A stretch of DNA of 64,000 bases from Escherichia phage JEP6: sequence record MT764206.1, one strand, 5' to 3'. Positions 50,458-54,257 of the stretch are shown in pieces. Within the stretch, counting starts at the first letter, position 1. Each line of letters begins with the position of its first letter. A program made the translations under genes and the position numbers. The notes under the pieces were generated by a model. The model made no database searches, was not told the origin of the DNA, and saw only the letters and a list, made by a program, of their open reading frames with translations.

Positions 50458-50928
50458 TTAATCATGTTTCCACACCCCATCGGTATTTGACCAAAGTCGC
50501 TGATTATCTGATCCTCGCCACAACTTTTTAGTCGGAAGATTTTTCTCATACTTCCCATCAATAATAACATCAACATATTTAAGCATTTCTAGTTGTTTAA
50601 TATCTTCAAACTTATATCCTGTCCACAACCAAATGCTTTTATTGGGATAAAGATTTTTAATAGTTTGAACCACAGAGTGAATCACGTCTCTGTTATCAGG
50701 ATAAAGAGGGTCACCTCCAGTTATAGTCAATCCTTCTATATAATCATTATTCAAACATTCAATTAATTGCTCTAGTGTTTCACCAGTGAATGGAATACCA
50801 TTTCTAGCATTCCATGTTGATTTATTATAACACCCTTCGCATTTATGCAAACATCCAGTAACAAAAAGAACGGTCCTGCACCCAGGACCATTAACAAAAT
50901 CGCAAGGATAAAATCTATCATAATTCAT
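50458..50928 (-). CDS. nrdG: anaerobic RNR activase (radical SAM)
   Basis: 156 aa; CxxxCxxC-type cluster CLHKCEGCYN. Confidence 0.85.
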   Translation of the reverse strand: MNYDRFYPCDFVNGPGCRTVLFVTGCLHKCEGCYNKSTWNARNGIPFTGETLEQLIECLNNDYIEGLTITGGDPLYPDNRDVIHSVVQTIKNLYPNKSIWLWTGYKFEDIKQLEMLKYVDVIIDGKYEKNLPTKKLWRGSDNQRLWSNTDGVWKHD

Positions 50929-52206
50929 TGGTGTTTAACCCTATGCATGATTTCTTTATTTTTACCGAGATTAAATCCGCGTTCGTTCGGATTTCCCAAA
51001 TAACCACATGTTCTTCTTATTGTGTTCATCTTTTTAGGATCAGTTTCTCCACAAATAGAACAAACAAATCCGTTTTCAGTAGGAGTCATTTCATGGGTGC
51101 TTCCGCATGTAAAACATTTATCTACTGGCATATTAACACCAAAATAATCTAAATGTTGTGCAGCATAATCCCATACGGCCTCAAGACCTTTTAAGTTATT
51201 TTTCATATCAGGAAGTTCAACATAAGAAATGTGACCACCTGTCGCAATGAAATGATATGGCGCTTCACGAGAAATCTTTTCAAACGGAGTAATATTTTCT
51301 TCTACTGAAACATGGAAACTATTAGTGTACCAACCTTTATCGGTAACATCTTTTACGCTTCCATATTTTTCTGTATCAAGTTTACAGAAGCGATAACAAA
51401 GGTTTTCAGCAGGAGTCGAATATAAACTAAAAGCAAATCCGGTTCTTTCAGTCCACTGTTTAAGATGGGCATTCATTTTAGTTAAAATTTCCTGTCCAAT
51501 ATCACGACCGACAAGAATATTCAATTCATGAATACCAATGTATCCTAAAGACACTGAACTTCTACCGTTTTTAAATAACTCAATTATGTCGTCATCAGGT
51601 TTAAGACGAACCCCAAATGCACCTTCTTGGTAAAGAATAGGAGCAACAGTCGCTTTAACTCCTTTTAAGGAACTAATTCTACACATCAAAGCTTCAAAAC
51701 ACAAATCCATTCGTTCATTGAATAATTCAACAAATTTCTGTTCATTGAACTGTGTTCCAATATAAGAATCTAACGCGATGCGAGGAAGATTCAATGTTAC
51801 AACACCAAGATTATTACGTCCATCAAGAATTTCATTGCCAGTCGAATCTTTCCATACGCTCAAGAAACTACGGCAACCCATTGGAGAAACAGGAACAGAT
51901 GAACCAGTGATAGCTTTATTATTCTTAGCTGAAATAATATCAGGATACATCCTTTTGCTTGCGCACTCTAGAGCAAGCTGCTTAATATCATAGTTCGGAT
52001 CGTCTTTGTAAAGATTAACACCTTCTTCAACAAACATAACAAGCTTAGGGAAAATAGGAGTTATCCCATCACGACCAAGACCTTTAATACGATTTTTCAG
52101 AATTGCTTTCTGAATCATTCGTTCAGTCCAGTCAGTTCCCGTACCAAATGTAATTGTTACAAAAGGCGTTTGTCCGTTTGAACTAAAGAGAGTATTTACT
52201 TCATCA
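50925..52206 (-). CDS. nrdD: anaerobic ribonucleotide reductase, exon 2
   Basis: Continues ...EVNTLFSSNGQTPFV... to C-terminal zinc ribbon and glycyl-radical region; joined with exon 1 gives 605 aa. Confidence 0.8.
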
Positions 52207-53249
52207 TTATATTCAGCATGAGTCGCAAATTCATGCCCGTTTATATGAAACAACAAAATTTGGATAGTCCATAGATATGCAACGTTCTTTTATAGTGCTA
52301 GGATGAAAATTTAGCGCTTTAGCTGCTTCTATATAAGACGTATACTTAATACCGTCAACAACCACATATTCAGGAACTTTATGAATAGTAGTCTTAATAC
52401 TCAAAACAAGAGGATGAGTTTCGACTTCACTTTCAGTGCAATTTAAATATTCCGCTGCTTTTTTAAAACTTCTAAAAGTTTTATTTTTAAGCTTTATCGA
52501 TACTTGTTTTTTACTTTTTCGACTATTGATATTATTTTGCACATGTTCCTTAGATCTTCCGTTTTTAGCATAATATTCAGCTACAGAAGATTTTATATTG
52601 TTTTTATGAGATTCGGATAACACTTTACCCTTATGAGCATCTCTTAATTTTTGAATATGTTCTTCAGTATCCGGATGCTTATAAAACTTTTTACCGCCTA
52701 TGGATTTATTTAAACATTTTTTGCTATAAAAATATTTACGTATGACCTCTTCTTCATGTTTTAATGCATCTTTATAACTATCAAATGTTTTTAAAATTAT
52801 CCATTTAGTAGGTGTATCAGTTTTTAAGCGTTCATTTATATACTTAGATGACGTTGTGTAAGTTTTCCAGTTTGTGGGCTTGTTTTTAATTGTTCTAAAT
52901 TTTTTATAACCGATATAAATGTCGCCATTAGAAAACTTAACTAAGTATGTAAATGCGTCTTTATCTTTTATTTTAGTACAACGTCTTTTTATCCATTTCA
53001 TTGTTTCACCTCGTATTCATAAGATAATCTTATTTATACAAGATGACTGCTGCATGTCGCCATGCAGATTAGACTATATCTTCATCTTTCGATGCCGGCC
53101 GTTTCGAATAGCATTAGCTTCTATTCTACACCGCTACATTCATCACGGTTAGTCGTTAGGCATTTAGTTCAAAAGAACATTTAGCACGGGATTGTCTACT
53201 AGAGAGGTTCCCCGTTTAGACCGGTTTTACATGAGCCTGAATTAAATTA
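52207..53249 (-). mobile_element. group I intron in nrdD (approx. 1043 nt), boundaries inferred
   Basis: Exon 1 frame stops at 53242; exon 2 frame open from about 52206; intervening 5' core (GACAAUCCCGUGCUAAAU...) plus GIY-YIG ORF; junction after exon U 53250 / intron G 52207 restores QAYE-Y-EVN. Confidence 0.7.
52231..53001 (-). CDS. intron-encoded GIY-YIG homing endonuclease (I-TevII-like)
   Basis: 256 aa; N-terminal YLVKFSNGDIYIGY; SD GAGGTG; entirely inside nrdD intron. Confidence 0.75.
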   Translation of the reverse strand: MKWIKRRCTKIKDKDAFTYLVKFSNGDIYIGYKKFRTIKNKPTNWKTYTTSSKYINERLKTDTPTKWIILKTFDSYKDALKHEEEVIRKYFYSKKCLNKSIGGKKFYKHPDTEEHIQKLRDAHKGKVLSESHKNNIKSSVAEYYAKNGRSKEHVQNNINSRKSKKQVSIKLKNKTFRSFKKAAEYLNCTESEVETHPLVLSIKTTIHKVPEYVVVDGIKYTSYIEAAKALNFHPSTIKERCISMDYPNFVVSYKRA

Positions 53250-53787
53250 ACTCATACGCCTGAAACGCGTCGTATACGTCTTTTTCTGTTTTAGATTGGG
53301 CATAATTCAACGCATCAGCGATTTGCCATTTTTCTGCATCCTCAATATGTTTTGCATAGGTGCGTTTAACATATGGAGAAAGTACTTTATCTACATTCGC
53401 AAAAGTCGTTCCGCCATATTGATGAGAAGCAACCTGTGCAGTAATTTGTGCCATAATTGCAGTAGCAACGCCGATTGATTTAGGAGTTTCAATCTGCGCA
53501 TTACCGAGCTTAAATCCGTTTTCAAGCATTCCTTTTAAATCTACTAAACAGCAATTAGTAAATGGAAGAGCAGGGGAATAATCAATATCATGGAAATGGA
53601 TAATTCCGCTTTCATGCGCTTTCATAATAAAAGACGGGACCATATTTTTGGCAATGTGTTTAGACACAATACCAGCCATAAGGTCCCGTTGAGTTGGAAA
53701 AACACGAGAATCTTTATTAGCATTCTCGTTTAAAAGGTCTTTATTAGTTTTATGAATCAATCCTTCAATTTCTTTTTCAATTGTCAT
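53250..53787 (-). CDS. nrdD: anaerobic ribonucleotide reductase, exon 1
   Basis: MTIEKEIEGLIHKTNKDLL... through ...DAFQAYE. Confidence 0.8.
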
Positions 53788-54257
53788 TTTAAACTCTTTC
53801 TAAGCTGCTTCTTAAATGAAGCTATTAATTGTGTTTTGGTGTCAGATTCATTATATTCAAATCCTCTTTGAAGCATCTCAGCCATCATTTCCTCTTTTCC
53901 TAAACGAGAAAATTCCTTTGATTTATCTCCAACAAAGTTAGGGTGAATATTATTTTGGGTGTAATCGGATTTTAAATAAGTAAGTAAATTTTCTAGCCAT
54001 TCAAGATAATCAACGCCTTGTCCTTTTAAACCAGAACGATTAAATTTATGTTTCATTTGACCTTCTGCAGCATTGCAGAGATTACAAAGCAATCCACGTA
54101 CCTTTCCTGCTTTTGGTCCATTTAATTCATGGTCATGGTCGAGGTGATTAGCTTGAACATCAGGATTTAGTTCTCGTTGGCAAATTAAGCATTTACCGTT
54201 TTGTGCATTATAAAATTTTTGTTTTTCTTCTTTGTATAATTTGCCAGTCAATAACAT
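53784..54257 (-). CDS. 49: endonuclease VII (Holliday junction resolvase)
   Basis: 157 aa; zinc-binding CLICQRE...CNLCN. Confidence 0.9.
   Translation of the reverse strand: MLLTGKLYKEEKQKFYNAQNGKCLICQRELNPDVQANHLDHDHELNGPKAGKVRGLLCNLCNAAEGQMKHKFNRSGLKGQGVDYLEWLENLLTYLKSDYTQNNIHPNFVGDKSKEFSRLGKEEMMAEMLQRGFEYNESDTKTQLIASFKKQLRKSLK

Follow-up and report, generated by a model that had tools for sequence, protein, structure and literature searches.

The nrdD gene of the T4-like Escherichia phage JEP6 is interrupted by what is very probably a mobile group I intron of the T4 nrdD (sunY) type. The locus is encoded on the minus strand of a 64,000-nucleotide stretch from sequence record MT764206.1, referred to here as the window, whose positions are used throughout. 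This reading is carried by the anatomy of the locus, the restoration of the nrdD frame, a ribozyme-model match, homology to the T4 nrdD intron, and signatures of mobility at the population level. The principal parts of the locus are listed below.

53250..53787, minus strand: nrdD exon 1, codons 1-179 and base 1 of codon 180; 96.5% identity with exon 1 of T4
52205..53249, minus strand: group I intron, 1045 nt, ending at the sole acceptor that restores the frame; boundaries align with T4 and with the intronless alleles of T6 and BECP11
50925..52204, minus strand: nrdD exon 2, the last two bases of codon 180, codons 181-605 and the stop codon; 97.2% identical to T4
53242..53244, minus strand: in-frame TAA six bases inside the intron, from the sequence and the end of the exon-1 frame
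52231..53001, minus strand: homing endonuclease gene within the intron, 256 aa, I-TevII homologue of the GIY-YIG family; 56% full-length identity to T4 I-TevII

The exon-1 frame (53787..53245, minus strand) runs to the residues ...DAFQAYELI and then meets the TAA, so translation of unspliced RNA is terminated there. The C-terminal 425 nrdD codons restart at 52202 on the same strand. An earlier note on this DNA had placed the stop at 53242 and the resumption of these 425 codons about 1 kb further on, and the frames agree. Joining U53250 to A52204, with G52205 as the last intron base, gives the single open frame among five acceptors tried; the spliced coding sequence (CDS) is 1818 nt long and encodes 605 aa across the junction QAYE-Y-EVNTLF. 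The predicted ligated exon sequence, with a slash at the junction, is ...GCGUAUGAGU/AUGAAGUAAAU..., or in RNA form ...GAGU/AUGAAG..., and the intron 3' end is ...AUAAUG, its terminal G being 52205. The earlier note had put the 5' site after U53250, which stands, and the terminal G of the intron at 52207, which does not, since the coding strand has an A at 52207. The in-frame junction peptide and the 605-aa NrdD it described are nevertheless obtained, solely with 52205; because both peptide and length require that position, the call was a 2-nt coordinate slip and its substance was right.

Intronless relatives contain the predicted junction as a continuous sequence. With the 600-nt ligated exons as query, the junction is uninterrupted in 631 of 704 matching phage records and split in 68. 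The intronless alleles of T6 and BECP11 read ...TATGAAT/ATGAAGTAAAT..., gapless at the predicted junction and with the same bases throughout. In the spliced NrdD, residues 21-604 form a single Pfam NRDD domain, with Gly_radical at 481-586. Aligned with the T4 NrdD that has been crystallised (PDB 1H78), the protein matches along residues 1-605 and has the same residues at the junction.

Between the exons, Rfam model RF00028 (Intron_gpI) recognizes a ribozyme core. An Rfam scan of 52000-53500 (1.5 kb) gave it 70.9 bits (gathering score 50; E = 1.3e-17). In like scans, the T4 nrdD intron, which has been studied experimentally, scored 105.3 bits, and endonuclease-less td introns and nrdD introns of the phi92 type scored 70-73. 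Two Rfam scans of the whole 64-kb window missed RF00028, one run at the gathering threshold and the other with laxer filters at E <= 0.01. These whole-window negatives are a speed-filter artefact rather than evidence of absence, because the 1.5-kb scan scores above the gathering threshold; whole-genome Rfam scans can thus overlook phage group I introns that contain an open reading frame (ORF). The earlier note had proposed a covariance model as a check on the group I core: the shorter scan finds the core, and the whole-window scan taken alone would be a false negative. Its identification of a group I intron interrupting nrdD is upheld by the RF00028 core, the U-G pair of P1, the terminal G, and the junction shared with intronless alleles. 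With E = 1.3e-17 for the model match and a contiguous junction in 631 related records, the feature is well beyond chance. Its RNA elements are given below.

53050..53285, minus strand: ribozyme core, P1 to P9, matching RF00028 over the full model (1-253)
53231..53241, minus strand: internal guide sequence, with P1 strand GCUCAU (53236..53231) and P10 strand UUCA (53241..53238)
53150..53220, minus strand: P4-P5-P6-P6a with the 5' strand of P7 (intron nt 30-100); these 71 nt are the same in td introns of T-even phages
53149..53130, minus strand: P7.1, hand model, double-sided changes relative to T4
53126..53106, minus strand: P7.2, hand model, double-sided changes relative to T4
53100..53095, minus strand: 3' strand of P3, hand model, double-sided changes relative to T4
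53094..53083, minus strand: P8, hand model, double-sided changes relative to T4
within 53072..53149, minus strand: J8/7, then the 3' strand of P7 (53076..53072), hand model
53069..53068, minus strand: J7/9 bases AU, the 5' partner of P9.0, hand model
53067..53050, minus strand: P9 hairpin with GCGA loop, hand model
52205..52242, minus strand: 3'-terminal intron domain, comprising ACGGG, P9.2, UGAAUAUAAUG, AU and the terminal G; common to T4 and endonuclease-less relatives
52236..52216, minus strand: P9.2 hairpin, four double-sided changes relative to T4
52207..52206, minus strand: AU at the end of UGAAUAUAAUG, the 3' partner of P9.0, hand model

Helices were placed in the JEP6 and T4 nrdD introns through a hand-curated helix table, hand-aligned and checked by script. 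Automatic covariation counts from a MAFFT alignment were dropped because T4 was misaligned in P7.1/P7.2. In the hand table, 51 pairs are identical between the two introns, 6 differ on one side and 22 on both sides, with 3 non-pairs in JEP6 and 2 in T4; P7.2 and P8 differ in length, which makes column matching there arbitrary, so these helices show retention and not strict covariation. P1, P6, P7 and P9 are unchanged, and P3, P4, P6a, P7.1, P7.2, P8, P9.0 and P9.2 are retained by double-sided changes. The two base pairs of P9.0, formed by J7/9 with the two bases that precede the terminal G, are U-A in JEP6 and A-U in T4, a compensatory difference. In P1, the last six bases of exon 1, AUGAGU, pair with GCUCAU so that U53250 stands opposite G in the canonical U-G pair, and UUCA of P10 is able to pair with exon-2 bases +2..+5. 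J8/7, P7 and P9 are nearly invariant among relatives.

The 3' domain has the order ACGGG, P9.2 with a ...GCGA... loop, and UGAAYAYAWUG, which recurs in endonuclease-less td introns and phi92-type nrdD introns. Because this domain is common to relatives without an endonuclease, the position of the ORF is, as in T4, after P9 and ahead of the 3' domain. For both the JEP6 and the T4 intron, the start-codon region is predicted to pair with the ORF's end. We propose that the first ~200 nt of the intron would fold as the core, with P1, P3-P9 and the P7.1/P7.2 extensions typical of T-even phage introns, and that the short 3' domain (P9.2, P9.0, terminal G) would be returned to this core past the ORF. 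An external guanosine would then attack after U53250, and the freed exon 1 would attack after G52205, ligating the exons into an mRNA for the 605-aa NrdD.

The ORF follows 248 nt of non-coding RNA, and its Shine-Dalgarno sequence, GAGGTG, lies 5 nt before the ATG, in keeping with the 256-codon ORF, its own Shine-Dalgarno sequence and the ~250 nt of non-coding RNA before it that had been reported earlier. The GIY-YIG-like N-terminus noticed at that time belongs to a full-length homologue of I-TevII, which exceeds the Pfam cut-offs for SegE_GIY-YIG (26.6 bits; cut-off 25) and NUMOD1 (25.3 bits; cut-off 22.8). It also matches PHROG 314, 'homing endonuclease', at E = 3.6e-29. Family profiles thus recognize a module of the GIY-(10/11 aa)-YIG kind at the N-terminus, where the motif is FTY(17-19)...YIG(29-31). 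Residues E83, R88 and N98 are invariant in a three-way alignment with I-TevI and I-TevII, although I-TevI is only 24% identical and the residue mapping is insecure. Identity to I-TevII by codon position is 0.64/0.74/0.52 across ~37% nucleotide divergence with the ORF open, a pattern that indicates, as far as sequence comparison can, long-term purifying selection on the endonuclease gene.

Upstream of the endonuclease gene lie three elements that resemble the control region of T4 intron endonucleases.

53006..53046, minus strand: hairpin burying the endonuclease Shine-Dalgarno sequence; dG -17.3 kcal/mol, z -6.59, 0 of 200 shuffles as stable
53012..53007, minus strand: Shine-Dalgarno sequence GAGGUG, in the 3' arm of the hairpin, 5 nt before the ATG
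53038..53031, minus strand: TATAAATA, of T4 late-promoter type, in the 5' arm and loop of the hairpin

TATAAATA is the T4 late-promoter consensus. The T4 counterpart hairpin has the same fold (dG -15.3 kcal/mol, z -5.25). A late promoter combined with a hairpin that buries the Shine-Dalgarno sequence is the reported design of T4 intron endonuclease genes (PMC2988022), and by analogy TATAAATA is probably used as a promoter in JEP6. On read-through transcripts of nrdD, the ribosome-binding site of the endonuclease would be hidden in the stable hairpin. Late transcripts from TATAAATA would lack the 5' arm of the hairpin and hence be translatable. Likeness to an operator or homing site was also sought upstream of the JEP6 ORF, after the Loizos/Edgell idea summarised in PMC3984707 and PMC2988022; the best match was 17/24, equalled by 48 of 200 shuffles and not above chance.

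The T4 nrdD intron is reported to be self-splicing and mobile (PMC2988022, PMC1865063). It interrupts the same host gene, and in an alignment with phage T4T both intron boundaries fall at the same exon bases. The order of parts is also the same: first the core, then, past P9, the ORF, and at a distance the 3' domain with P9.2, P9.0 and the terminal G. T4 likewise has the hairpin with TATAAATA burying the Shine-Dalgarno sequence, and the ORFs are homologous and collinear over their full length. The introns are 1045 nt long in JEP6 and 1033 nt in T4. Identity between them is only 68% in the 5' core, 63% in the ORF and 62% in the 3' tail, in contrast to 96.5% in exon 1 and 97.2% in exon 2. Site and order are therefore those of T4, whereas sequence closeness falls well short of that of the exons. 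At the positions of P7.2, P8 and P6a the two introns have different helices, and the P4-P6 block in JEP6 is td-like, unlike that of the T4 nrdD intron. The flanking markers differ too, lying in exon 1 for the JEP6 type and in exon 2 at +8..+38 for T4. Judged by these comparisons, the JEP6 intron is an allelic but deeply diverged lineage of the T4 nrdD element, not a copy of it.

The T4 td intron, host to I-TevI, belongs to the same T-even group: it has P7.1 and P7.2, and 71 nt (P4-P5, P6, 5' strand of P7) are identical to JEP6. I-TevI is a GIY-YIG enzyme too and is controlled by a late promoter and a Shine-Dalgarno hairpin (PMC2988022). The td intron differs in its host gene td, in carrying its ORF in the P6a loop instead of after P9, and in its guide sequence, P7.1 and P8. 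More distant are the nrdD introns of phi92-like Justusliebigvirus, rV5-like Vequintavirus and Vibrio phages, with core identity of 68-85% over parts of nt 14-204 and a common 3' end motif, a ...GCGA... hairpin followed by UGAACAUAAUG. These either lack an ORF or carry one of winged-helix or HNH type in other loops, and their differing exon-1 lengths suggest other insertion sites in nrdD. The nrdD gene of Vibrio phage F96 is apparently in more than two pieces. A related ribozyme core interrupts the large terminase gene of Aeromonas phage 2L372D.

The endonuclease gene was found by megablast in 45 records, 43 of them with the full length at >=99.5% identity. Carriers are Escherichia, Shigella, Salmonella and Proteus phages of Tequatrovirus, plus one record classed as Mosigvirus. 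None of the 45 belongs to the AY2621xx series, the source of partial T6 nrdD and T6/U5 td records. Since 68 alleles are split in total, ~23 records should have the T4-type intron, and roughly 90% of related phages are intronless.

For the 2.9 kb around the endonuclease gene, no match exceeds 97.9% identity. In phage N2, an intron 100% identical over all 1045 nt lies between exon flanks of a different haplotype. Silent donor-type markers in exon 1 occur at -2 only in BYEP01, at -2, -8 and -11 in N2, SQ17 and 215Ecol030PP, and at -2, -8, -11, -17 and -20 in JEP6 itself, becoming rarer among carriers the farther they lie from the insertion site. Exon 2 of most carriers shows six third-position differences at +14..+29, and the window is the same as intronless T6 from +1; this carrier haplotype is not diagnostic of the intron, because it is also found in an intronless Mosigvirus. 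G at -2, which forms a G-C pair in P1, is present in both intron lineages; in four intronless alleles the base is A (T6, BECP11, mar005P1) or G (JS09). A donor junction assembled from window exon 1 and exon 2 of the SQ17/N2 type had no full intronless match, the best being a Mosigvirus at 91.8%.

The mechanism of homing with co-conversion is reviewed in PMC2988022. The same intron in differing exon contexts, with markers graded by distance, is, as the alignments stand, the product expected of it. The endonuclease would cut the intronless nrdD of co-infecting phages near the insertion site, and repair would copy the intron and variable lengths of adjoining exon into the cut allele. The activity and target of the endonuclease are assigned by analogy with its homologues.

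Decay is also visible within the lineage. An A6-to-A7 insertion in vB_EcoM_F1 and FN frameshifts and splits the endonuclease ORF, and the 772-nt copy of the gene in 236Ecol005PP is annotated in two pieces. In 215Ecol030PP, deletion of intron nt 294-859 leaves a 479-nt intron. In BYEP01, deletion of about nt 264-964 leaves an intron of 345 nt that still scores 72 bits on RF00028. Both natural deletions are flanked by short direct repeats (microhomology) and remove most of the endonuclease gene, and both derivatives retain core nt 1-263 and at least the last 81 nt. The parts retained appear to point to selection on the intron RNA.

Several points weigh against a functional, mobile intron. Splicing is argued from homology with the T4 intron. 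The RF00028 score is 34 bits below that of T4, P5 contains a C-U mismatch, and the predicted 8-bp long-range P9.1 helix of T4 (CUGUUUAU/AUAAACGG) is without a clear counterpart in the JEP6 intron. The generic Pfam model GIY-YIG (PF01541) is sub-threshold for the endonuclease, at 10.3 bits versus 22.6, although T4 I-TevII scores no better on it. A sequence search of the PDB with the endonuclease gave no match even at E = 10. The near-identity of intron copies could stem from recency instead of selection. Finally, nrdD of T4 should be dispensable in aerobic laboratory growth, which would make a splicing defect tolerable for a time.

One alternative is an intron RNA that splices while its endonuclease is inactive or no longer mobilises it, the element being passed on by vertical descent or ordinary recombination. 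The frameshifts in vB_EcoM_F1 and FN and the large deletions in 215Ecol030PP and BYEP01 show such decay within the lineage, and catalytic residues can be mapped at motif level only. The JEP6 endonuclease ORF, however, is intact and identical to that of about a dozen other records, and has stayed open over ~37% divergence from I-TevII with substitutions of coding type. Vertical descent or ordinary recombination also sits poorly with an identical intron in different exon haplotypes and with graded markers, and we regard this account as unlikely.

A further alternative, in which the intron is splicing-defective and nrdD is a tolerated pseudogene, would draw on the lower Rfam score (70.9 versus 105.3 bits), the P5 mismatch, the lack of a clear P9.1 counterpart and the aerobic dispensability of nrdD. 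It is very improbable in the face of the core helices, all of which are kept, many through compensatory change, and of the near-invariance of J8/7, P7 and P9. Endonuclease-less td introns and phi92-type introns score alike, at ~70-73 bits; both exons are open and 96.5-97% identical to T4; and the deletion derivatives keep exactly the RNA parts required for splicing.

That NrdD is made without splicing as two assembling polypeptides, after an endonuclease insertion of the 'gene in pieces' kind reported for the NrdA of Aeromonas phage Aeh1, which mobE splits, is scarcely credible. GenBank/RefSeq records of carriers do list two separate nrdD CDSs, and a TTG-initiated ORF (52256..50925) spans the C-terminal part. 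However, this TTG is internal to the endonuclease ORF, and the pieces have a complete group I core between them and join in frame exactly where intronless alleles run on; the T4 homologue is a joined CDS, and its product crystallised as a single chain of 605 aa.

A mobile group I intron therefore remains our reading of the locus, and its core is a mosaic. Over intron nt 30-100 (53220..53150), JEP6 does not differ from the td intron of phage HMD-9, which is 254 nt long and endonuclease-less. In two segments of this block, JEP6 matches the HMD-9 td intron at 42/42 and 12/12 positions and the T4 nrdD intron at 34/42 and 9/12, the T4 nrdD intron having its 8/42 differences in P4-P5. The T4 td intron is identical as well outside the 12-nt P6a hairpin, with 42/42 and 17/17 nt flanking P6a. 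P7.1 is 20/20 identical to the terminase-gene intron of an Aeromonas phage.

A chimeric td intron of 254 nt, with a td backbone, the nrdD-variant P6a GTTCTTTTGAAC and no I-TevI, occurs in exactly five records: SP21535, N2, 236Ecol005PP, CJY920 and HMD-9. The first three also have the JEP6-type nrdD intron. About 6% of related phages carry that intron, which gives a rough binomial p of ~0.002 for the co-occurrence when relatedness is ignored, and a close relationship among these phages is quite likely. The td introns of BYEP01, CE1 and Shinka, which are endonuclease-less too, still have the P6a stem proper to td. The simplest reading, towards which the balance tips slightly, is exchange of RNA domains between the nrdD and td introns of the same phages by ectopic gene conversion. 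The ORF-free nrdD P6a hairpin (GUUCUUUUGAAC) would have been copied into td via the identical arms of 42 nt and 17 nt, precisely erasing the I-TevI gene. Bryk and Belfort in 1990 reportedly described domain shuffling between T4 introns in laboratory pseudorevertants. If true, the exchange proposed here would be natural domain shuffling between paralogous introns, and a loss of the endonuclease without random deletion.

The neighbouring genes, also on the minus strand, are the endonuclease VII gene (gene 49 of T4; 54257..53784) upstream of nrdD and nrdG (50928..50458) downstream. At the nrdD/nrdG junction (50925..50928), nrdG directly abuts nrdD, leaving an endonuclease slot that is empty in the window. 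This slot is variable: in T4 and 215Ecol030PP it is filled by the HNH endonuclease gene mobC, in N2 and BYEP01 by other endonuclease-like genes.

Public genomes hold the lineage by the dozens, unjoined and mostly labelled merely 'homing endonuclease'. Carrier records (for example NC_054912, MW882907, ON645936) give nrdD as two independent CDSs with the intron unannotated, and the C-terminal CDS of carriers begins at a TTG within the endonuclease ORF. Joined exons are found in T4-type records alone; nrdD of T4 is annotated as a joined CDS with I-TevII inside. In the searchable literature, a scope outside which the key surveys lie, no description of a second nrdD intron lineage was found.

The self-splicing, mobile T4 nrdD intron with its GIY-YIG endonuclease has been in the textbooks since the 1980s. 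The element is thus of a fully known kind, this second lineage alone is new, and no concept is changed by the finding. Its practical side is an annotation trap, namely a split nrdD in dozens of genomes together with a ribozyme missed by a whole-genome covariance scan. For the biology of these phages, the lineage displays the full life cycle of an intron endonuclease (intact, frameshifted, deleted), together with signs of domain exchange with td. Two deeply diverged intron/endonuclease lineages compete for one nrdD site, and they form a natural pair for asking how enzymes of the I-TevII type diverge while keeping or shifting their target.

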